A stretch of DNA of 64,000 bases from Terriglobia bacterium (GCA_963823205.1 CAWGKL010000006.1:3072-67071), one strand, 5' to 3'. Shown: positions 31,774 to 42,319, counted from the stretch's first letter. Numbers and translations are program-made. The notes: generated from the sequence alone by a model not told the origin.

Positions 31774-32998
31774 ATGGGGCCTACACTAGTGATAAATTTC
31801 CTCGTGTCAATGCCACGAGAACCATACGTTGCGCAAGCCAAAGGCCCAAATCCGAAATTCCGGGTTACTATCGGGGCGGGAGAGACGAGTCCCGTGGCGG
31901 GAATTTTTATCAGCTACAGACGCGGAGACAGCATCGGCCATACCGGCCGCTTGTTCGATCTGCTCACCAAACACCTCGGCGCGGGGCAGGTGTTTATGGA
32001 CATCAACACGATCGGCCCAGGCGAAGACTACCTGGAGGTGATCAAGAAAACCACCGAATCCTGCGAACGTCCTGCTGGCAGTGATCGGACGTTCCTGGCT
32101 GAATGCCGCGGACGAAAATGGGAATCGCCGGCTGGATGACCCCGGCGATTTTGTACGCCTGGAAATCGGAAACGTGCTGGAAAAGGGAGCCCGCGTGGTC
32201 CCCGTGCTGGTGGATGGCGCGCGCATGCCCGACGCAAAATCTCTTCCGCCGGATTTGAAAAAGCTTGCGCTTCGCAATGCGTGGGAGATCAATGACAAAA
32301 GCTTTCACCAGGACGTGAAGCAGCTCATCGAGGCGCTGCAGAAGATGCAGCCGGCACTGCAGCCGGCGCCATCCCATTCCCTGACGGAGCGATCGCCGCA
32401 AGCGGCGTCTGCCGCGAGCAGTTCCGCCGCGATGGGGTCCGCTGCGGTGGCCGGAGAGCGGGGCGCGCATCCACGGCGCGCCGATAGGATTCGGAAAGGA
32501 ATTTATGTCGGGATTGGCGCGGTTGCACTGTTGGCGCTCGCGCTTGTGGGATTCTTTGCATGGATGAAGTCAACGCCGCCAATGGGATCGAGCAGCGGGA
32601 CTTACGATATTCCATCCTTGCAGGCCGGCGTGGACGGGCCGCTGCTATTTTTTCTGGCCGATCCCAACCGTCCCGTGCCGCCGCTCGGGCAAAGAACCTA
32701 CGCAAATAATTTTCATTCGGCGCTCACCTCCGGGAAGCGCATCTTTTGGCAAGTGGGCTTGAATTTCCAGGGGCAATTCCCGCCGCGCGATTACGAAATC
32801 CAAAGCGTGTGGTACCGCGATTCGAAGGAAATATATCGCGGCACGGGGAACTATAAAGGCTCGGACGTTTCCTCGCGCGCCTTCCACAACCGCTTCGGTT
32901 GGGACCCGCCGGGAGGACGCCTTGACGCGGGACAGTACCGGGTTGATCTGTTTATTGGCGGCCAACAAATTACGTCAGGCGCTTTTGTCGTGCAGTAA
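31774..32998 (+). CDS. TIR-domain protein with one TM helix and a C-terminal extracytoplasmic domain (1 frame disruption near 32066)
   Basis: GIFISYRRGDSIGHTGRLFDLLTKHLGAGQVFMDINTIGPGEDYLEVIKKTTESC is followed, after removal of one A in GAAC 32065-32068, by DVLLAVIGRSWLNAADENGNRRLDDPGDFVRLEIGNVLEKGARVVPVLVDGARMPDAKSLPPDL. The TM helix is IYVGIGAVALLALALVGFFAW, followed by about 150 aa of unknown fold. The start may be 31810. Confidence 0.8.
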
Positions 32999-33040
32999 AC
33001 CAACAGGGCCAAGCCTTCTGCCCTCCGTCCTCGTCCCTCA

Positions 33041-33121
33041 CCCCTCGCTTGCCGCGCCGAAGTCCGCCTTTTGGACTCCGGATGATTCTGCGGAGCGGAT
33101 TCATCGCGTAGGCGGGTCCCT
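33041..33121. repeat. ~80-nt two-hairpin element, copy 2 (direct repeat of 31667-31747)
   Basis: Same core sequence as copy 1, again flanked by CCCTC-rich runs. Confidence 0.9.
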
Positions 33122-33199
33122 CGCCCCCCACCCCTCGCCCCTCGTCCCCCGCCTCGGTGCCTCTTTACCCTGAGTGACTTACCGAAGGGCGTGGCTTTC

Positions 33200-33296
33200 C
33201 TGCTTTTAAGACCACTTAAGGGGCGTTTTCGTGTCATTTTTGTGCATTTTAGGGCGTTTTATGAGCGTCAATTCACGCTCAATTGAAGGGCTTAAA
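33200..33296. repeat. AT-rich block with CCACTTAAGG palindrome and four helically phased T-tracts
   Basis: T-tracts begin at 33226, 33237, 33247 and 33257 (10-11 bp period). The block continues at 34957 once the IS1380 insertion is removed. Confidence 0.75.
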
Positions 33297-34956
33297 CCGG
33301 GATTTCCGATTTGGACTTTCGACTCGCGCATCGTAATACTCCTTCTACCCTCGACGCAAGAAATTTGTGACCGGAGCAGCCCGCCAGCGAGGCTTTCGCG
33401 TTCCGACGGCTCGTTTGTGCCATCTGACGAGTCCTGCTTGCTGTCGCGTAATCAATTTCTAAGACACCGCTCCGCCCCTTCCCCCTTAGCCGCACATTTC
33501 GCGCCCTCAGTCCGAGCACTACCCAGTCGGCACCGGCAACGCCCAGATCCGCTGCAACATCGTCCCGAACCGGCGTCGGGTCAGGTGACTTTCTGCCAGT
33601 AACAGCCAGTAGTACCGTGCGTGTTTCACCAGACGCCCGCCAGTCTTGACGAGGCGTTGCTGCAGGCTGGTCAGCGACCAGGCGTCGATTTTCCTCGGCA
33701 GCACCAGACGGCGCCAAAGGTTGCCCAAGTTGTAGGCCAGCAGGCTCAACTGTAAACGTGCTTCATTGGCCCGGAACCGATGGCACGATAGCCGAGTCCA
33801 ATGTGTCGCCTGCTTGCCTTCCTTGATCCATTGCTCGGTCGTGCCCCGCTTACTATAGAAACGCACGACCGCCCGGCTGGCCAGGCTGAGATTCGTGACG
33901 ATAAAGCCGACTCGCGGAAACAACTCGCCGACGTGGAACTCCACCTTCGCTACCACCCGCCGCGCCGTTTTCCAACTGGCCGCTTGGTAGAGAAAGCCCT
34001 TGTACCGGACCACTGGTTTGTGGCTCGGCCTTCCCACTGGTCGCGTCAGCAACTCCGCAATGTCCCGCTCCAGGTTGTCGTTGGCCGGTATGCGGATGGC
34101 ATACTTCACGCCGCGCTCCTCCATCGCTTCATAGATCTCCGGTTTGGCAAACGCCGCGTCCGCCCGGAAAGCTACTTCCTTGCCCTCCGCCTGTTGGCGC
34201 TCGATCTCTGGCAACAGCAACTCATCCCAGTCTTCGGCGCTGTGCACGTTGCCCGAGCGCAACTTCGCCCCCAAGCAGTCGCCGTGACTGTTGAACAGAA
34301 ATAGCGGGTGGTAACAGACCGACTCGAAGTGCCCGTTGTAGGCGCTGCCCTCCTGCTCACCGTGAACCGGACTCTCACTGAAATCCATGTCGAGCACGAC
34401 GCGGTCGGAGCCATCAAAAGACTCGGCTTGCCCCAACGTCTCCCGGTTCAACGCCATCAGCCCGATCAGATTCTCTTCCCTGGTCAGCAGCTCGGTCTCG
34501 AACCAATGCAAGGTCGAGGTCAGCGCCGCGCCCCGGTCCCAGATTCTCTGCGAGCTGATCAATCGAAACGTCGGATCGGCTGCCAGTCGTTCGGCGTCGT
34601 TGAGGTCTTCGTAGCCTGCCAAGCGGCTGTAGACCGACTGCCGCAGTAAATCGGCCAGCGTGAACTGCTTGTTCAAGCCTTGTCGCGAGTCGCTCAAGTG
34701 TTTCTCGATGAGCTTCTCCAGACCCAGCCGCTCATCCAACTCGCGAACCAAAATCAGGCCGCCATCGGAAGTCACCCGCGATCCCTGGAAATCGATCTTC
34801 AAAGAAGCATTGAACAAGAGCTGAAATGGCTGATTTTGTTTCTCACCCACTGGGTATGCACCTCCAAGCCGTCCTTACCGCGTCCAAACCCGCATAAATA
34901 CAGATGCCGCCGAACATCCGAAGGTTCGTAAGAAAAGTTCAAATTGGAAATCCGGG
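33297..34956 (-). mobile_element. complete IS1380-family insertion sequence (1660 bp) with 5-bp target duplication TTAAA
   Basis: Imperfect terminal inverted repeats are CCGGGATTTCCGATTTGGA (33297-) and CCCGGATTTCCAATTTGAA (complement of -34956). TTAAA is present at 33292-33296 and 34957-34961. Confidence 0.85.
33519..34850 (-). CDS. IS1380-family DDE transposase
   Basis: 443 aa: ...VTSDGGLILVRELDERLGL...VVLDMDFSESPVHGEQEGSAYNGHFESVCYHPLFLF...AFRADAAFAKPEIYEAMEERGVKYAIRIPAN...RFYSKRGTTEQWIKEGK... Confidence 0.9.
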   Translation of the reverse strand: MGEKQNQPFQLLFNASLKIDFQGSRVTSDGGLILVRELDERLGLEKLIEKHLSDSRQGLNKQFTLADLLRQSVYSRLAGYEDLNDAERLAADPTFRLISSQRIWDRGAALTSTLHWFETELLTREENLIGLMALNRETLGQAESFDGSDRVVLDMDFSESPVHGEQEGSAYNGHFESVCYHPLFLFNSHGDCLGAKLRSGNVHSAEDWDELLLPEIERQQAEGKEVAFRADAAFAKPEIYEAMEERGVKYAIRIPANDNLERDIAELLTRPVGRPSHKPVVRYKGFLYQAASWKTARRVVAKVEFHVGELFPRVGFIVTNLSLASRAVVRFYSKRGTTEQWIKEGKQATHWTRLSCHRFRANEARLQLSLLAYNLGNLWRRLVLPRKIDAWSLTSLQQRLVKTGGRLVKHARYYWLLLAESHLTRRRFGTMLQRIWALPVPTG

Positions 34957-35146
34957 TTAAATTACTCGAAGTGTTAGGGAATTCCACGCTGATAATTACT
35001 CGAAGTTCTACACAAATTTTCGAGGAATTCATGTTTGATTAAAACCCCAATTATTCGAAGACTTTGTCAGCATCTTTACTTCAATCATTCGGCCGATTTT
35101 GTCAGCATTTTTACTCGAATGATTCGAGCTTTTCGGGCGGGACAAA
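34957..35146. repeat. AT-rich block of degenerate ~34-35-bp repeats containing TTACTCGAA motifs and the palindrome CTCGAATGATTCGAG
   Basis: TTACTCGAA-like motifs occur at 34962, 34996, 35051, 35076 and 35111. TTTGTCAGCAT...TTACT(T/C).AAT.ATTCG is repeated with a 35-bp period. A perfect CTCGAA-TGA-TTCGAG is at 35114-35128, 19 nt from the NRAMP stop codon. Confidence 0.8.
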
Positions 35147-36493
35147 TTAGAAGAAATGCAGAGGCAAAATTGCGCCGCCGAGGCCGGCGGCGGAGGGGTT
35201 GAAGATCGTGGCGTACACCAACACTACGGTGAGAATAATCATCACGACGCTCGCGGTCCATGCGACGGCGTTGAAGCCCCAGGAATTGGTGTGCTCGCCC
35301 ATCAGGTCGCGCCGGTTAATCAGCAGCAGAATGAAAATTAGGACCACGGGCAGCCAGACGCCGTTGGCTACCTGCGAGAGCACCAGAATCTTCAGCAGCG
35401 GCGCCTTGGGAATCAAAATAATCCCCGCGCCGACGACGATCATGGCGGTGTAGAGCCCATAAAACGTGGGTGCTTCCTTCAGCTTGTTGTCGAGCCCCGC
35501 CTCGAATCCCAGGCCTTCGCAAATCACGTGCGCCGTCGAGAGCGGCAGAATGGACGCGGCGAAAAGCGACGCGTTCAGCAGCCCAAACGCAAAAAGCCCG
35601 GCGGCCCATTTGCCCGCGACCGGTTCGAGCGCCTGCGCCGCCTGGCCCGCGTCGGTGATGTTCGTCAGGCCATGAACGTGCAGCGTGGCGGCGCAGCAAA
35701 CGATGATGAAAAATACGATCACCATGCACGAGACGCTGCCCACCAGCACGTCCAAGCGCGCGTGCTTGTACTGCCGCGGCCCCACGCGCTTTTCGACGAA
35801 ACTGGCCTGCATATAGAAGAATTGCCACGGAGCGATGGTCGTGCCGATCAGCCCGGTGAGCATCAGCAGGTAAGCGGCATTCATGTGCAGCGAAGGAATC
35901 ACCGTCTGCTTCGCGGCCAGCAGCCAATCCGGCTTGGCGAGAAACGCCGAGAACACATAGGTGAGATAGAAACCGCAGGCCACCAGAAAAATTTTCTCCA
36001 CCTGCCGATAGGTGCCGCGCACCACCAGAATCCAGACGAGCACCGCCGCGATGGGCACGGCAATATATTTGCTGATGCCGAAGATCTGCATCGAAGCCGC
36101 CACTCCGGCGAATTCCGCCACCGTGTTGCCCATATCCACGGCCAGCGCCGCCAGCATGACGAAGAACGTCGAGCGAAGGCCGAACTCCTCGCGAATCAGA
36201 TCCGAAAGGCCCTTGCCGGTGATCACCCCCAAGCGCGCGCACATCTCCTCGCTGACGTAAAGCGCGATGGTCATGGGAATGAGCGACCAGAGCAGCGCAT
36301 AGCCGAATTGCGCCCCGGCGATGGTGTACGTGGTGATGCCGCCGGCGTCGTTATCCACATTCGAGGTGATCAGGCCCGGGCCGATGACCGCCAGAAACAC
36401 GGCCAGGCGCCGGCGCGTGGACCGCGTGCGGCGCATGAACTCCTTGCCGCGGCCGGTCCAGCGGGAAAGCGCGTCGGTGGATTTTGTGTTCAT
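35147..36493 (-). CDS. NRAMP/SLC11-family transporter with NRMT-like (putative Mg2+) substitutions in the metal site
   Basis: TM1 reads GPGLITSNVDNDAGGITTYTIAGAQFGYALLW (canonical DPGN is DAGG here). TM6 reads IGTTIAPWQFFYMQ (canonical GA..MPHN is GT..APWQ here). An alternative start ATG at 36436 is preceded by AAGGAG. Confidence 0.85.
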   Translation of the reverse strand: MNTKSTDALSRWTGRGKEFMRRTRSTRRRLAVFLAVIGPGLITSNVDNDAGGITTYTIAGAQFGYALLWSLIPMTIALYVSEEMCARLGVITGKGLSDLIREEFGLRSTFFVMLAALAVDMGNTVAEFAGVAASMQIFGISKYIAVPIAAVLVWILVVRGTYRQVEKIFLVACGFYLTYVFSAFLAKPDWLLAAKQTVIPSLHMNAAYLLMLTGLIGTTIAPWQFFYMQASFVEKRVGPRQYKHARLDVLVGSVSCMVIVFFIIVCCAATLHVHGLTNITDAGQAAQALEPVAGKWAAGLFAFGLLNASLFAASILPLSTAHVICEGLGFEAGLDNKLKEAPTFYGLYTAMIVVGAGIILIPKAPLLKILVLSQVANGVWLPVVLIFILLLINRRDLMGEHTNSWGFNAVAWTASVVMIILTVVLVYATIFNPSAAGLGGAILPLHFF

Positions 36494-36800
36494 AACGATT
36501 TTCGCAGCGACGAATTTAAGCGGCGCAGCCGCCCCGAATTACTCGGGCCATTCGACGAATCCAAGCAGCGTTTCTGGCCCGAATTCCTCGAACGATTCGA
36601 CGATTGTTAGGCAGCGTTTCTGGCCCGAATTCCTCGAACGATTCGACGATTTTTAGGCAGGCTCGCTGCAAAAAAGTACTCGAATCATTCGATTACTTTC
36701 TGCCCAAAAAGTGCTCGAAAGGTTCGACTAATTTAAGCCCTTAAGTGGCCTTAAAATGCCAATTTTTGCCATTTTTTGGCGCTTTTTTGCGCTTTTTGAC
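36494..36800. repeat. AT-rich intergenic block: five CTCGNN-N3-4-TTCGA sites at ~46-bp spacing, CCTTAAGTGG palindrome, four phased T-tracts
   Basis: Sites are at 36542, 36587, 36633, 36679 and 36714. T-tracts begin at 36763, 36772, 36783 and 36793. AAGGGCTTAAATTA(G/C)TCGAA is shared, inverted, with 33283-33296 joined to 34957-34967 once the IS1380 insertion is removed. Confidence 0.8.
36565..36651. repeat. two perfect 41-nt direct repeats (46-nt period)
   Basis: GCAGCGTTTCTGGCCCGAATTCCTCGAACGATTCGACGATT occurs at 36565-36605 and 36611-36651. Confidence 0.95.
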
Positions 36801-36842
36801 ACCCTATCCTACGGGCTGCATCCCTTCCCCCCTCGGGGCCAG

Positions 36843-36852
36843 CCCCCCCCCC
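36843..36852 (-). repeat. homopolymeric G10 (C10 on the plus strand), its nearest base 7 nt downstream of the CBS-gene stop
   Basis: agCCCCCCCCCCtgctatcta. On the coding strand it is followed by further G runs (GG, G6, GGG). Confidence 0.9.
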
Positions 36853-36858
36853 TGCTAT

Positions 36859-38100
36859 CTATAATTGCGCGCGCAAATGGCTGACCACGTCGTCCACCGT
36901 GATGGCCCCGATGGGATGGTTTTCCTCGTTGACCACGGCCAGGCTGCGCAGGTTGTATTTGTCGAAAATCTCGAAGATTTCGTTGTCGCGCGTGTCCGGC
37001 TTCACGAAGAGCAAGGGCTCGAACACGAACTCGGACATGCGCTGCTCGGCGCTGGCCAGGAGCAGGCGCGCCAGCGGAACCGTGCCGGCCAGAGCGGCAT
37101 CGCGGTTGACGAGGATGACGTTGTCGAGCTGATCCACGGGAATCTCGTGGAAGCGGATGTAATCGAGCACCTCGCCGCGCGTGGCGTCTTCCCCCAGGAC
37201 CACGATTTCGGAATTCATCATGCCGCCCGCGGTGTTGGGCTCGAAGCGCAAGAGTTTTTCCACTTCCTGGGCCTCGCGATGCTGCATCTTCTCGAGCACT
37301 TCGGCGGATTTTTCGGGCGCCAGGCTCTGGATCAAATCGGCGGCCTCATCCGGACTCATCTCCTCGATGATGTCCGCGGCTTTCCCGGGCGCGAGCTTTT
37401 CCACGACCTGGGTCTGCAGGCGCTTGTCCAACTCGGCAATGGTTTCGGCGGCGGTCTCTTCGTCGAGGGAAACAATGATGGATTGCCGCTCGTCGGGAGA
37501 AAGCTCTTCCATGATGTCGGCGAGATCGGCGGGATGGAGCTTGGACAGCCTGTCGCCGGAAAGCCGGAGCTTCACCCGGCGCAGCGGGTCCGGCTCAATC
37601 AGGTTGACGAATTCCCAGCGGATGGTCTTGGGCGGAAGTTTGCTTTGGATGCGGCGAATGGCCATGGGCGAAACCACGCCCTGCAGCAGGCGGCCCACGG
37701 CGGCCTGGAGACCCACGTCCACGTCGGTGATGCGCAACTCGGTATTGCCGTTGGTCTGCTGATCGGCCAGGTCCACGTCGTTCACGCGGACGACCTTGCG
37801 GCCGTGGGTGTCAATAATCTGCTGGTCGAGAAGGTCCTTGCGCACGGCCAGCCAGGCTTCATTGGGATGGTAAAGCTCGAGAGCGGATTCCTCGGTTGTG
37901 AGATTGACGCGGCCGGGAGCCACCGAGGCAATTTGGTCGTAGCGCGCCACGAGCGGGCGGTATTGCCCGCGTCCCAGGAGTAGGCGCGAGACGCGGTTCT
38001 GCTGTTCGGCCGGCACGATGAACATCTCCTTGACGCGGCCTACAAAATTGCCGAGCGAGTCGTACGTCTCGGCGCCCAGGATTTCCGTGGCGTGAAGCAT
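36859..38100 (-). CDS. soluble PRC-barrel + MgtE N-terminal domain + tandem CBS protein (no MgtE membrane domain)
   Basis: The PRC-like N-terminus is ATEILGAETYDSLGNFVGRVKEMFI. The MgtE-N-like acidic helical repeats are LHPADLADIMEELSPDERQSIIVSLDEETAAETIAELD...AADIIEEMSPDEAADLIQSL. The CBS pair is AGGMMNSEIVVLGEDATRGEVLDYIR...NVILVNRDAALAGTV...LAVVNEENHPIGAITVDDVV. An AGGAG SD is 6 nt upstream. Confidence 0.88.
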   Translation of the reverse strand: MLHATEILGAETYDSLGNFVGRVKEMFIVPAEQQNRVSRLLLGRGQYRPLVARYDQIASVAPGRVNLTTEESALELYHPNEAWLAVRKDLLDQQIIDTHGRKVVRVNDVDLADQQTNGNTELRITDVDVGLQAAVGRLLQGVVSPMAIRRIQSKLPPKTIRWEFVNLIEPDPLRRVKLRLSGDRLSKLHPADLADIMEELSPDERQSIIVSLDEETAAETIAELDKRLQTQVVEKLAPGKAADIIEEMSPDEAADLIQSLAPEKSAEVLEKMQHREAQEVEKLLRFEPNTAGGMMNSEIVVLGEDATRGEVLDYIRFHEIPVDQLDNVILVNRDAALAGTVPLARLLLASAEQRMSEFVFEPLLFVKPDTRDNEIFEIFDKYNLRSLAVVNEENHPIGAITVDDVVSHLRAQL

Positions 38101-38125
38101 GGCGGCTCCTAGTGTGGTGAGTTGT

Positions 38126-38234
38126 AAGTTCGTTGCATAATTCCGGAGGTCCTCAGGGGCTAAAGCCCGCTAAAAAGACGGTGCTTAATGTCGGAGATGA
38201 AGCTCCGACCCCCTAAAAACCATGCAACGAATTT
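38126..38234. repeat. MITE-like element with terminal inverted repeats AAGTTCGTTGCAT / ATGCAACGAATTT
   Basis: It lies between the leader terminator and the CBS-gene SD. The internal GTCGGAGATGAAGCTCCGAC hairpin is related to 22889-22939. Confidence 0.8.
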
Positions 38235-38302
38235 CTGACTCAGGGCACTTGCTGTCTGTCACTGCTTTCGAGAACGCCTCGCGCGAAGCTCATGGCCTCG
38301 CT

Positions 38303-38345
38303 AAATAAAAAAAGCCCGGGGCCGGAGATGCACCCGGCCACGGGC
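38303..38345 (-). terminator. strong intrinsic terminator
   Basis: The minus strand reads CCCGTGGCCGG-GTGCATCT-CCGGCCCCGGG followed by CTTTTTTTATTT. Confidence 0.75.
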
Positions 38346-38572
38346 GGAAAATCACCGCCCTGTGATTACTTCCTGCCGGGCCCTGCCTCCCTGCCGCCGT
38401 GGACGCCTATGGCGCGGGAGCAGCGATCCACAATGAGCGGAGAATCGGACTGCCCTTCCCGGGCTCCCTGCGGCCCAGTGGGGCGATTACTTCCAGGCTC
38501 CGAATTGGACGAAAGGTCTTCCATTTCGATGCGCTTGCGCTCACCTCGACTACTAAAGGCAGATGCGGATTT
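38346..38572 (-). ncRNA. candidate cis-regulatory leader / small RNA upstream of the CBS-NRAMP pair (unclassified)
   Basis: About 230 nt of non-coding sequence lie between the CYTH stop (which sits inside a TTGACA hexamer) and the terminator. It has competing hairpins (AATCAC-AGGGCG-GTGATT versus GGGCGG-TGATTTT-CCGCCC) and a 10-nt motif GGAAGTAATC that occurs twice. No convincing ORF. Confidence 0.3.
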
Positions 38573-38574
38573 TG

Positions 38575-39306
38575 TCAAGCGAAGAGTGCGCGTTTTACGA
38601 AATTTTTACGCGGGAAAAGCATATTCCGCGGGAAACGGCCGCGCCGGCGGCAATGGGCCGCATAAAGGTCTCCATAGCTGGCGCGAATGTAGTCGCGAGG
38701 CGAAAACCCAAGGGCGCGGGCCACCCGGTCTATTTTCCCAGGACCGCCCTCCAGCTCCAGGAAGGCGCCGATGGGGGTCTCATCCAGGTCCACTTCAAGG
38801 GCTGGGAGCCGGAATGCGGTCCGGTATTTCTCATAGCGGAATACGGGATGGAAGCCGATGCCGCGAAGCATCATGGGCCAGCCCCGGGGTTTGCGGACAA
38901 CCCACTCGCGTTCGAGCCTTTCCTTGTATCGCCGTGAGGGCGAAAGCAGCGGCGCCTTGAGCGTCAGAATGGCGCGAGCACGGCGGCCAAGAAATGCCGT
39001 TTTGCCCATGCTGCGGCCGCGTGCCGAGGGCGCCAGGGTTTCGACGCGCAGCCGCAGAAGGCAGCCGGCACGGCGGAGAGAGGAATCGGGCGTGTCGTAG
39101 AGCGTGTTGCGCTCAAAGACGCGCCCGCGCGGCGCGGCACGGAGACGCCGGAGATTGCGGACGAGCGCAGGCCCACCGGTGACGCGGAGTTTGATTTCGG
39201 TTTCGCGATTTGTACGGCCGCGGGAAGTCACGCCTGAGTATAGCTCAGCCGTGGCGCGGCTAAGGAGGAAGCGCGATGGCAGGTACTGTCGTAATTTGGA
39301 GCGCAA
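38575..39306 (-). CDS. CYTH-domain protein (CyaB/ThTPase-like)
   Basis: ETEIKLRV...RVFERNTLYDTP...LRLR...ILTLKAP...REWVV...FRYEKYRTAF...LEVDLDETPIGAFLELEG. The real start is probably downstream of 39306. Confidence 0.8.
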   Translation of the reverse strand: MRSKLRQYLPSRFLLSRATAELYSGVTSRGRTNRETEIKLRVTGGPALVRNLRRLRAAPRGRVFERNTLYDTPDSSLRRAGCLLRLRVETLAPSARGRSMGKTAFLGRRARAILTLKAPLLSPSRRYKERLEREWVVRKPRGWPMMLRGIGFHPVFRYEKYRTAFRLPALEVDLDETPIGAFLELEGGPGKIDRVARALGFSPRDYIRASYGDLYAAHCRRRGRFPRNMLFPRKNFVKRALFA

Positions 39307-39510
39307 AATATCAGCGGATTGTGTCGCACCTACGGCGCTCAGACGAATTTGTTATTTCTACCCAGGGTTTCCACCCTGGGCTAACTTCTGTCGCCCCTAT
39401 GGGGCTGATCAATCATCGAATTTGGGACAGTACCCGGCGGGAAGGAACGGTGTTGCCAAACGAGAGCGCGCAACAGCATAATCGCTTCCCTGCCGGGACC
39501 GAGCGCATCC

Positions 39511-42319
39511 ATGAATGATCAGACAACTCCGCTGATGCAGCAATATCACGCCGCCAAAAAGCAGCATCCGGCGGCGCTGCTGCTCTTCCGCCTGGGGGAT
39601 TTCTACGAGCTATTCTTCGACGACGCGGTGGTGGCCTCGCGCATCCTGCAAATCACGCTGACCGCGCGCAACAAGGAAAAAGGCGCGCCCGTGCCGATGT
39701 GCGGAGTTCCCTACCACGCGGCCGAGAATTACATCGCGCGGCTCGTTGGCGCGGGCCACAAGGTGGCCATCTGCGAGCAGATGGAAGAGCCGGGGCCCGG
39801 AAAGAAGCTGGTGAGGCGCGAGGTGATTCGCGTGCTGACGCCAGGGACGGCGGCGTTCACGTCACTTGTGGAACCGAAGGAGAATAATTTCCTGGCGGCC
39901 GTGGCGCGCAGCGCCGCGGCCTCCGCCGCCGCGGCGGGCGGACGGTCGCCCTCCCGCCCGGCGGAGCCGAGAATCGGCCTGGCCTTCGTGGATCTATCCA
40001 CGGGAGAATTTCGCTCGACGGAGTTTTCCGGCGAGCGAGCGGAGGCGCGCCTGGGAGACGAACTGGGCATTTTGCGGCCGCGCGAAATTCTGCTGCCGCG
40101 ATCCGCAAAGCCCACGCTCTTTCCCGAAACGAGCGCGTCCAGTTCGGGGCAACTTGAGTTTCGCGCCACAGGCGCCGTGGAAACGCGGCTCGACGAATGG
40201 ATTTTCGAGGCCTCCTACGCGACGCGCCTGCTGGAGGAGCAGTTCCGAGTGGCCGGCCTCGAAGGGTTGGGACTGGCCGGGCATCCGCAGGCCGCGGCGG
40301 CGGCGGGCGCCATTGTCCATTATCTGCGCGAGACCTCGGCCATCGGCGCGCGCAAGCCGGAAGACAACGCGGCGGCGGCGGCCGCGCGGCCGGCCGGAAC
40401 GGGGCTCGAGCACCTGGATCGAATCACATACTACGAGCAGCAGGACCGCATGATTCTCGACCAGGTGACGGTGCGGAATCTGGAACTGGCGGAGCCCGCG
40501 CCGGGAGAGGACGCGCGCGCCACTCTGCTGGGCGCCATGGATGAAACCGCGACGGGCATGGGAGCGCGCCTGGTGCGCGGGTGGATTCTGCGCCCGGAAA
40601 TCGCGCTCGAGGAGATCGAGGCGCGGCTCGACGCGGTGGCGGATTTGAAGTCGCGGACCGTGCTGCGCGAGGAGATTTACAGCGAGGCTCGAAAATATTC
40701 TGGACCTGGAGCGGCTGGCCAGCCGCGTGACGATTGGCGTGGCCACGCCGCGGGATTTGCTGGCGCTGGGGGCGTCGCTCGGAAAAATTCCGCGGCTGCG
40801 GGAGCTATTGGGAACGGAAGGAAAGGCCGGCGCGCGGCTGGCGGCGCTGCGCGAGCAATTGGATGAGATGGCGGATGTGCGCGAAATTATCGCGCGCGGA
40901 ATCGCGGACGACCCTCCGGCCATGCCCAACGAGCCGGGCGTGATCCGCGCCGGGTTCCACGCGGAGCTCGACGAACTGCGCGACACCATGAAGCACGGCC
41001 GCCAGATCATCGCGGCCATGGAGGAACGCGAGAGAAAACGCACGGGAATCGGGTCCCTGAAAATCCGCTACAACCAGGTGTTCGGCTTCTACATCGAGGT
41101 GTCCAAACCCAACCTGCACCTGGCGCCCGCGGACTACGAGAGGAAGCAGACGCTGGTGAACGCGGAGCGCTTCACTTCGGGCGAGCTGAAGGAGCAGGAG
41201 CGCAAAATCCTTTCGGCCGAGGAGCGGGTGCTCGAAATCGAGCGGCGGCTTTTTTTCGAAATCCGCGAGGCCATCGCGCGGAACGCAGCCCGGCTGCGGC
41301 GGACGGCGGCGGCCATCGCGCAGCTCGACGCGCTCGTGAATTTCGCGCGCATCGCCGCGGCGCGGAATTATTCCAGGCCCGAATTCACCGAGAAAGCCGC
41401 CGCGCCGGCGGGTCCGCAGCTAACAGCCAAGGGCGCGGCACGCGGCGCGCGCGGCGAGCTCGTGATTGCCGGCGGGCGCCACCCGGTGATCGAAAAGCTG
41501 CTCGAAGAGAGGGGCGAGCGGTTTGTGCCCAACGATTTGTATCTGGGCGACGCCTCGCCCTTCCTGCTGATTATCACCGGGCCGAACATGGGCGGGAAAT
41601 CCACGTATTTGAGGCAGACGGCGCTTATTTCCATTCTGGCGCAGGCGGGGTCGTTCGTTCCGGCGGCGCAGGCCAAGCTGCCGCTCGTCGACCGCATTTT
41701 CACGCGCATCGGGGCGTCGGATAATCTGGCGCGGGGCCGCTCGACATTTCTCGTGGAGATGAGCGAGGTGGCCGCGATTCTGAATACCGCGACGCCGGCA
41801 AGCCTGGTGCTGCTCGACGAAGTGGGACGCGGGACATCGACCTTCGACGGGCTTTCCATCGCCTGGGCCGTGGCGGAGGCGCTGCATGCGGGCGCGCGGC
41901 CGCGGACGCTCTTCGCCACGCACTACCATGAGCTGACGGACCTCGAACCGCTGCTCGCGGGGGTGAAGAACGTGCACGTATCGGTGCGCGAGGCCGGGAG
42001 CGAGATCGTGTTCTTGCGGCGGGTCGAGCCGGGGAGCGCGAACAAAAGCTACGGCATCGAAGTGGCGCGGCTGGCGGGGCTGCCGGACGCGGTGATCGCG
42101 CGCGCGCGGGAAATTTTGCGGCGGCACGAGCAGAGCGAAGAAAAGCTCGCCGGGGAGCTTTCCCCCGGGGCCGCGCCGCACGCGCCCGCGCAGACGCAGA
42201 CGAGTTTTACGGCCCTCGATGAATCCGTGCTCGAAGCGCTGCGGGGAGCGGATCTCGAGAAGCTGACGCCGCTCGAAGCGCTCAACCTGCTGGCGTCGCT
42301 GCAAAAGCAGATGGAATAG
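39511..42319 (+). CDS. mutS: DNA mismatch repair protein MutS (1 frame disruption near 40686-40690)
   Basis: TPLMQQYHAAKKQHPAALLLFRLGDFYELFFDDA..., after the shift ...LENILDLERLASRVTIGVATPRDLL..., then ITGPNMGGKSTYLRQ and LVLLDEVGRGTSTFDG. Confidence 0.95.

Follow-up and report, generated by a model that had tools for sequence, protein, structure and literature searches.

Can the Mg2+ sensor of one transport system serve, as a separate protein, a carrier of an unrelated fold? The question is raised by two neighboring genes in a 64,000-nucleotide stretch of DNA from a Terriglobia bacterium (GCA_963823205.1 CAWGKL010000006.1:3072-67071; here, the window). One gene encodes a carrier of the SLC11 (NRAMP) family, and the other (here, the partner) encodes a protein resembling the cytosolic part of the Mg2+ channel MgtE. 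An earlier note on this DNA, made from the sequence alone, had suggested that the two may form a split system in which an MgtE-type sensor regulates an SLC11-fold Mg2+ transporter in trans. Our analysis shows that the carrier is, by its sequence, clearly an NRAMP-related Mg2+ transporter (NRMT), and conserved synteny strongly supports a functional link between the two genes. With modest confidence, we read the locus as an nrmT-type divalent-cation uptake operon in which an NRMT carrier would be combined with a soluble MgtE-type feedback subunit and a leader attenuator. The genes are arranged as follows.

35147 to 36493, minus strand: gene for an NRMT-type SLC11 transporter of 448 amino acids (Pfam Nramp and EleNRMT alignment)
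36494 to 36858, minus strand: repeat-rich spacer of 365 bp between the sensor gene and the NRMT gene
36859 to 38100, minus strand: partner (MgtE-like sensor) gene, 413 amino acids (Pfam MgtE_N and CBS)

Among bacterial Mg2+ importers, NRMTs make up the fourth class. The transporter of the window is a full-length member of the Nramp family (Pfam PF01566, E = 1e-97) and reaches 166 bits with the NCBIfam MntH model, far under the cutoff of 430, which is consistent with a noncanonical member of the family. Its best solved relative is EleNRMT of Eggerthella lenta (7QIA), with an E value of 8.9e-100 and 41.5% identity over 400 residues; EleNRMT is far ahead of all canonical NRAMPs, the best canonical MntH structure giving only 4e-31. 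In HMMER alignments, the motif NDAGG in transmembrane helix 1 (TM1; D49, A50, G51, and G52) lies on the identical motif of EleNRMT (Asp55 to Gly58) and on DPGN of DraNramp, the Deinococcus MntH, and the TM6 motif GTTIAPW (G217 to W223) lies on the identical motif of EleNRMT and on GATVMPH of DraNramp. The resulting changes in the metal site are G52 (Asn to Gly), T218 (Ala to Thr), and A221 (Met to Ala). The loss of proton-pathway residues holds at both His positions of helix 6b, which are replaced by W223 and M228, whereas the helix 3 Glu and the helix 10 Gln are kept: the counterparts of E127 and Q374 in EleNRMT are Glu133 and Gln379, residues discussed by Ramanadane et al. (2022, eLife). The earlier note had read the motifs DAGG and GT..APWQ as Mg2+-type substitutions within an NRAMP fold and had called for an alignment to NRMTs and canonical MntH; the alignments place all four exchanges (Asn/Gly, Ala/Thr, Met/Ala, and His/Trp) in the metal site and thereby confirm that reading.

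Family representatives from a library of 1.8 billion proteins show the pattern D-x-G-G together with G-T-T-x-(A/T/S)-P-(W/Y). The window protein differs from EleNRMT at the second helix 6b position, which is Asn in EleNRMT and Met228 here, and by an Arg-rich N-terminal tail of 30 residues. To our knowledge, the only NRMT structure was solved without a partner protein.

What, then, is the protein encoded upstream? Three parts can be distinguished in it.

37567 to 38100, minus strand: partner residues 1 to 178, tandem PRC barrels (1 to 84 and 85 to 178; PRC matches in homologues, structure model, and Foldseek)
37231 to 37566, minus strand: partner residues 179 to 290, acidic MgtE N domain with a net charge of -14 (Pfam and alignment to Thermus thermophilus MgtE, TtMgtE)
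36859 to 37230, minus strand: partner residues 291 to 413 and the stop codon, CBS pair (alignment and structure model)

Pfam matches to MgtE_N (6e-26) and CBS (9e-11) are found in the partner, and residues 179 to 412 align to the cytosolic domain of TtMgtE (E = 1e-28). An AlphaFold model of the partner (pLDDT, 78), in which both CBS motifs are visible, superposes on five structures of MgtE cytosolic domains with TM-scores of 0.76 to 0.83. No membrane helix was found in the protein (the maximum 19-residue Kyte-Doolittle mean is 1.09), nor any Pfam match to the MgtE membrane domain, and its C terminus corresponds to the position of TtMgtE E255, just short of the plug helix. Because the plug helix and the five-helix pore are absent, the partner is not an MgtE channel but the sensor half alone. 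It shares the N domain and the CBS pair with the T. thermophilus channel (2YVY/2ZY9; TM-score, 0.77) and differs from it not only in lacking the plug helix and membrane pore but also in having 178 additional N-terminal residues. Pfam, the model, and hydropathy thus bear out the description in the earlier note of an upstream gene encoding a PRC barrel, an MgtE N domain, and two CBS domains without a membrane domain. The same note had the gene immediately upstream on the same strand; order and strand hold, while the close abutment does not, given the spacer of 365 bp.

As judged from sequence and structure prediction, the PRC module is a tandem one, and no other part of the partner is as conserved. 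The PRC match in the window protein is under the Pfam cutoff (18 versus 21.2 bits); among the 38 partner homologues, PRC (PF05239) is significant in 36, with a best E value of 2.8e-11. A relationship between the two halves of residues 1 to 178 is detected by hhalign (E = 1.8e-4), and an AF2 model of this region has a pLDDT of 80. In a Foldseek search with it, the tandem PRC barrels of archaeal CdpB1/CdpB2 (8QZO; E = 1e-4, 136 to 148 aligned columns) came first, followed by MTH1859, the reaction-center H subunit, and RimM. The resemblance to CdpB1/CdpB2 is at the level of the fold only, with 11 to 15% identity, an unrelated biological context, and no MgtE/CBS part. The most conserved motif of the whole partner, DLLDQQIIDxxGxKVVRVNDV (residues 89 to 108), lies in the second barrel and is kept across phyla.

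The evidence that the two genes belong together comes from synteny. A scan for NRMT genes, with one genome per species, covered Acidobacteriota, Nitrospirota, Binatia, Syntrophales, Planctomycetia, Armatimonadota, and WOR-3 and gave 80 loci, 75 of which could be evaluated for the partner (5 could not). The partner gene is directly upstream on the same strand in 52 of the 80, and the PRC half was matched in 50 of these 52 adjacent partners. Start and stop codons of the two genes overlap by 4 nucleotides (nt) in 8 loci, suggesting translational coupling. Eight further NRMT loci have the partner within 5 kb (5 at 1 to 5 kb upstream and 3 convergent downstream). In the reverse direction, among 80 metagenomic partner loci, a set that is biased to relatives with at least 51% identity, NRMT lies directly downstream in every one of the 73 that could be evaluated. 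This survey of adjacency, which the earlier note had called for, therefore finds the synteny conserved both ways.

Individual loci depart from the simple arrangement. (i) In three loci of Acidobacteriaceae (L053, L057, and L075), about 3.8 kb separates the partner gene from the NRMT gene downstream of it; in L057, the pair is split by genes encoding a glycosyltransferase-like protein, a GMC oxidoreductase, and an aldo/keto reductase. (ii) In a long-read assembly (L165, 4129 to 6915), the partner is called as two pieces of 388 and 38 amino acids and NRMT as two pieces of 290 and 144; these fragmented calls are either pseudogenes or indel errors. (iii) A protein of 466 amino acids that combines a CBS end with Nramp (P0200) was considered as a natural fusion and rejected; it comes from a short contig, is itself fragmentary, and probably results from a read-through call, although a real joined gene would be a natural fusion.

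Does the partner retain what MgtE uses to sense Mg2+? The Mg2+ sites of MgtE (PMC5882242) and its ATP contacts (PMC5529423) were mapped onto the partner through the partner-TtMgtE alignment, with the following result.

Mg4: TtMgtE D91 and D247, partner D251 and D404; kept and conserved in the family
Mg6: TtMgtE D95, partner D255; kept and conserved in the family
Mg7: TtMgtE E59, partner E219; kept and conserved in the family
Mg5: TtMgtE D226 and D250, partner N383 and S407; lost
ATP contacts: TtMgtE Y170, R187, D188, N203, and F227, partner N327, A344, R345, F360, and L384; all side-chain contacts replaced

Two more MgtE sites, Mg2 and Mg3, involve the plug helix and the membrane domain, both of which are absent from the partner. 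Among the 38 homologues, D251 and D404 are conserved in 31 to 37, D255 in 37, and E219 in 25. In TtMgtE itself, mutations at the Mg4, Mg6, and Mg7 residues abolish Mg2+-dependent closure (PMC5882242).

The earlier note had taken the partnership to be uncharacterized. That part of it does not stand: the pairing, the feedback hypothesis, and a coexpression test were all published in 2014, and regulation in trans is to be regarded as the hypothesis of that paper. Shin et al. (2014, PLoS Genet; PMC4072509) reported that most nrmT genes adjoin a homologue of MgtE's cytoplasmic N-terminal domain and speculated that its role is cytoplasmic feedback regulation or that of a metal chaperone. They coexpressed the Acidobacterium capsulatum pair ACP_2976/ACP_2977 in a Mg2+-transport-deficient Bacillus subtilis, where the fragment added no rescue; the transporter ACP_2977 rescued a Mn2+ transport defect fully and the Mg2+ defect partially (at low-millimolar Mg2+). 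The same authors found M-box riboswitches on many nrmT operons, which ties the pair to Mg2+, and none on the acidobacterial one (PMC4072509).

The operons of that study (Clostridium acetobutylicum Ca_c0685 and A. capsulatum ACP_2976/ACP_2977) have the same gene pair, gene order, and transporter clade as the window. The A. capsulatum pair is like the window pair also in belonging to Acidobacteriota, in lacking an M-box, and in being the subject of the same feedback hypothesis. There are three differences: the window operon has a conserved leader open reading frame (ORF) and a terminator instead of a riboswitch; the tandem PRC-barrel half of the partner, shown here, goes unmentioned in the text of that paper; and the window genes are parted by a lineage-specific array of palindromes. 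We found no later literature that settles the role of the partner. The structural and evolutionary papers after 2014 leave it unaddressed, the EleNRMT paper (Ramanadane et al., 2022, eLife) does not discuss it, and a 2025 survey of MgtE architectures searched membrane-domain proteins only. What is new here is the tandem PRC module, the map of MgtE sites, the synteny counts in both directions, and the clade-specific leader ORF and terminator that take the place of the M-box.

How might such an operon be controlled where there is no M-box? The leader emerged when the 474 nt that precede the partner gene were aligned to the corresponding DNA of relatives. Its parts are as follows.

38573 to 38578, minus strand: promoter-like -35 hexamer TTGACA (consensus match)
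38550 to 38555, minus strand: -10-like TAGTAG/TACTAG (consensus match)
38366 to 38524, minus strand: leader short ORF of 52 codons plus TAA, MEDLSSNSEPGSNRPTGPQGAREGQSDSPLIVDRCSRAIGVHGGREAGPGRK (conserved open frame)
38342 to 38360, minus strand: hairpin 1 (GGGCGG/CCGCCC), beginning 5 nt past the ORF stop codon (pairing in relatives)
38307 to 38345, minus strand: intrinsic terminator with an 11-bp G+C-rich stem (38345 to 38314) and a T-run (38313 to 38307) (RNAalifold)

In a search against Rfam, neither an M-box nor any other family was found in the leader or the spacer at E values up to 1 (33000 to 40000) or up to 10 (38090 to 38600), and no M-box was found in 13 diverse nrmT loci. The sequence CTTGAC is invariant among 8 aligned relatives, and the -35 hexamer overlaps the stop codon of the upstream gene, which encodes a CYTH-domain protein. 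A leader profile (nhmmer) recovers 79 copies among the loci examined, every one immediately upstream of a partner gene. The leader is confined to a clade with partners of about 60% or more identity to that of the window, and it is absent at 48% identity or less.

The ORF is open in about 70 of the 73 unique relatives, with a length of 38 to 68 codons, always in frame. Its N terminus is conserved (M-x-x-S-S-N/E-x-E-P-G), its C terminus has one of two forms (REARPGLx-stop or GWGGFTxG-stop), and the middle varies in sequence and length. For 62 unique ORFs, which were selected for being open, the other two frames of the span contain 136 and 81 stops, compared with about 94 per frame expected from base composition. 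The pN/pS ratio is 0.99 in the middle, 0.73 to 0.77 at the ends, and 0.86 overall; strong purifying selection on the peptide was looked for and not found. A neutral middle between constrained ends in a frame that stays open indicates that selection holds the frame and the ends and not the body of the peptide, a pattern that, on the sequence evidence, is the signature of a regulatory leader ORF. The ORF is annotated as a hypothetical protein in about 100 clusters and belongs to no Pfam family. Independently retrieved copies lie, in three of three cases, in the order CYTH, ORF, partner, NRMT, UppS. We found no earlier description of the conserved leader ORF and terminator in the literature.

In the RNAalifold consensus of 19 sequences, the terminator forms 11 pairs, and compensatory changes occur in 5 of these. 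The terminator is present upstream of the partner gene in all relatives with at least 65% partner identity and a leader match, except L008. From the T-run to the start codon of the partner, the median distance is 69 nt, and 13 of the 73 relatives have no more than 37 nt there; so short a gap leaves no room for a separate promoter, so that those operons must be read through the terminator. From this anatomy and its conservation, the ORF and terminator probably constitute a leader-peptide attenuator.

A precedent exists in enterobacteria, where leader ORFs precede Mg2+ transporter genes (mgtL before mgtA, two short ORFs before mgtCBR, and perhaps one before corA; PMC3641672, PMC6460261, and PMC11552253). 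The window leader resembles these attenuators in having a short ORF upstream of structural genes and conserved motifs containing Pro and Gly. It differs from them in that it has no sequence similarity to them, a longer ORF (38 to 68 codons), and a classical intrinsic terminator, and in that the search for an alternative antiterminator yielded no convincing candidate. That Mg2+ is the signal for the leader is a guess based on this analogy.

The explanation that we consider somewhat probable is as follows. The NRMT is a carrier of the SLC11/LeuT fold whose site, devoid of the soft Met ligand and of the Asn, would move Mg2+ (and Mn2+) uncoupled from protons, by analogy with EleNRMT. The partner would be its dedicated soluble subunit; the C-terminal half corresponds to the cytosolic Mg2+ sensor of MgtE, and the tandem PRC barrel would stand in for the plug helix and pore. 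High cytosolic Mg2+ would lock the sensor into a compact state, and the compact partner would bind the transporter through its PRC module and lower uptake, which amounts to feedback at the protein level. Expression of the structural genes would depend on read-through of the terminator, with translation of the leader ORF modulating read-through in the style of Salmonella mgtL.

Several findings weigh against this explanation. For the feedback subunit, the ligands of Mg5 and every side chain that contacts ATP in MgtE are replaced in the partner, so that its sensing would be no simple copy of that of MgtE. The sole experiment on such a pair, that with the A. capsulatum genes, gave no effect of the partner and a better rescue for Mn2+ than for Mg2+ (PMC4072509). 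The partner is missing within 5 kb in 15 of the 75 evaluable NRMT loci, and no natural fusion of the two proteins was found among the representatives checked, long NRMT representatives consisting of the Nramp domain only. For the attenuator, the 365-bp spacer possibly supplies a promoter of nrmT's own. In addition, the gap between T-run and partner start is 206 nt in the window, owing to an insertion; read-through is thus not required there by geometry, and a second promoter is possible. No convincing antiterminator was found in the leader. The 3' arm of hairpin 1 shares 2 to 4 nt with the 5' arm of the terminator, and its pairing is possible in 77% of cells for type-1 leaders and in 92% for type-2 leaders (slid controls for the latter, 17 to 60%); covariation is weak. 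Hairpin 1 was rejected as an antiterminator because the lowest energy belongs to the full terminator, whether or not a ribosome footprint is included. The idea that the conserved 5' coding block pairs with the terminator was likewise rejected, as shuffled sequences do equally well (mean z between 0 and -0.4); complementarities apparent by eye in both leader types are thus unsupported. When the leader is folded as a single sequence, it does no better than shuffles (z = -0.33).

These results on folding lend themselves to a different view of the leader, doubtful in our judgment and yet the alternative that survives best: the short ORF and the terminator may be an independent small-protein gene or a leaky terminator and not a signal-responsive attenuator. 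Besides the failure to demonstrate an antiterminator, it accounts for the position of the ORF end, which precedes the terminator stem by 21 nt, a distance at which a terminating ribosome could not mask the stem, and for the conservation of N- and C-terminal peptide motifs, with pN/pS at 0.73 to 0.77. It fits less well with a middle that is neutral and variable in length and nevertheless open, which is typical of regulatory leaders and unusual for a functional protein. Neither does it fit the 13 of 73 relatives in which the terminator is within 37 nt of the partner start and the operon is read through it, or the position upstream of the partner, which is fixed in 79 of 79 copies.

A second alternative concerns the metal. 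The acidobacterial transporter may be mainly a Mn2+ importer, with a partner that senses or handles Mn2+ or that acts as a metal chaperone or buffer and not as a Mg2+ gate. The full Mn2+ rescue by ACP_2977, the Mg2+ rescue at low-millimolar concentrations only, and the lack of any gain from the partner, for which a chaperone or Mn2+-sensing role was proposed (PMC4072509), speak for this alternative, although growth rescue in a heterologous host is an indirect assay. The metal site of EleNRMT was located through the anomalous density of bound Mn2+, and Mn2+ transport was assayed beside that of Mg2+; even so, EleNRMT, whose metal-site residues are identical to those of the window protein, was characterized as a Mg2+ transporter. 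The window operon has no M-box, whereas the same operon is controlled by Mg2+ riboswitches in other phyla (PMC4072509), and the partner retains the acidic Mg2+ ligands of MgtE. We regard this alternative as unlikely, while it is uncertain whether Mg2+ rather than Mn2+ is the physiological substrate in Acidobacteria. Finally, we consider it quite improbable that the partner responds to Mg2+ or energy status as a general regulator, reaching other targets by way of its PRC barrels and being merely coexpressed with nrmT: PRC barrels do bind proteins in unrelated systems (CdpB1/2, RimM, and the reaction-center H subunit), and some NRMT genes have no partner nearby or have it 3 to 4 kb off with unrelated genes between, but NRMT follows all 73 evaluable partner genes directly, the overlaps in 8 loci suggest translational coupling, and no partner homologue was seen in another context, in a set biased to at least 51% identity.

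Repeats that could bear on control of nrmT lie in the spacer and just past the NRMT gene.

36533 to 36660, minus strand: 46-bp tandem repeat in the spacer
36587, 36633, 36679, and 36714: four perfect palindromes TCGAA-N3-TTCGAG, spaced 35 to 46 bp
35114 to 35128: perfect 15-bp palindrome CTCGAATGATTCGAG of the same motif as the spacer array, 19 bp past the NRMT stop codon

No further perfect copies of the motif were found in the 64-kb window. The spacer measures 365 to 438 bp, with four or five palindromes, in the window and in those relatives that are closest to it (partner identity of 92% or more). The array is common only to these closest relatives (L001/L086 and L085) and was rejected as a general feature of the operon. 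L001 also has a site of the motif just past the NRMT stop (9059), and L085 has one downstream of the spacer array (3404); in L003, which is 82% identical, the spacer is only 46 bp. The array may be an operator array giving nrmT a control of its own, or it may be a repeat insertion. In other acidobacterial lineages, this spacer is occupied by repeats unrelated to these, inverted as well as tandem (L028, 4765 to 5000; L078, 4620 to 5015). The position between sensor and NRMT genes seems to attract repeat insertions.

Around the operon, the CYTH-domain gene (38575 to 39306, minus strand) is on the same strand and directly upstream in the window as well as in L001, L003, and L165 to L167. Between it and mutS lies an Acido-Lenti-1 RNA (RF01687; 52.8 bits, E = 5e-10) at 39361 to 39406 on the plus strand. 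This RNA and the source names of the nearest homologues place the window in an acidobacterium of the "Candidatus Acidiferrales/Acidoferrales" group. The mutS gene (39511 to 42319, plus strand) is broken into two overlapping ORFs by a one-base insertion near 40686. In L001, MutS is a single protein of 933 amino acids; the tblastn frame switch falls at residue 392/393, and the insertion is outside a homopolymer. The split may represent a true pseudogene (and the organism a possible mutator) or an assembly error. Downstream of NRMT, the window has an insertion sequence (IS) transposase gene (DDE_Tnp_1_4, E = 4e-116) at 33519 to 34850 on the minus strand. In L003, uppS and cdsA come directly after NRMT, while in the window about 3.7 kb, including the IS and unannotated ORFs, lie between. 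Two ORFs overlap at 31774 to 32998 (plus strand); the first, with the motif FISYRRGD, matches TIR_2 weakly (E = 0.016), the second falls in no family, and together they may be a frameshifted TIR-domain gene beside the IS.

What would the operon mean for this family of transporters? In the literature that we searched, nothing since 2014 explains the role of the MgtE-like gene that almost always sits alongside. The locus and its relatives provide a domain map for testing that role, with two PRC barrels as the likely docking module, four candidate residues for mutation (E219, D251, D255, and D404), and more than 120 natural gene pairs that can be used for coevolution analysis or complex modeling. 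Should the partner prove inert, or should the transporter turn out to carry Mn2+, the locus would be a metal-uptake operon of the ordinary sort. Regulation of operons that lack an M-box would find its explanation in the leader ORF and terminator, and if the leader responds to Mg2+, ribosome-mediated sensing of this ion would have arisen independently outside enterobacteria. More speculatively, and with less confidence than we place in the operon as such, Mg2+ uptake in this acidobacterial clade may be under a two-tier control, with neither tier described so far, in which stalled translation of the leader ORF under scarce Mg2+ (at the conserved motif EPG or at RPGL/GGFTxG) sets terminator read-through and an MgtE-type sensor, docked by its tandem PRC barrels, closes the LeuT-fold carrier in trans. 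If this is true, the leader tier would be a convergent counterpart of enterobacterial mgtL, and the sensor tier would be the first instance of an MgtE sensor module transferred, as a subunit of its own, to a transporter of unrelated fold.

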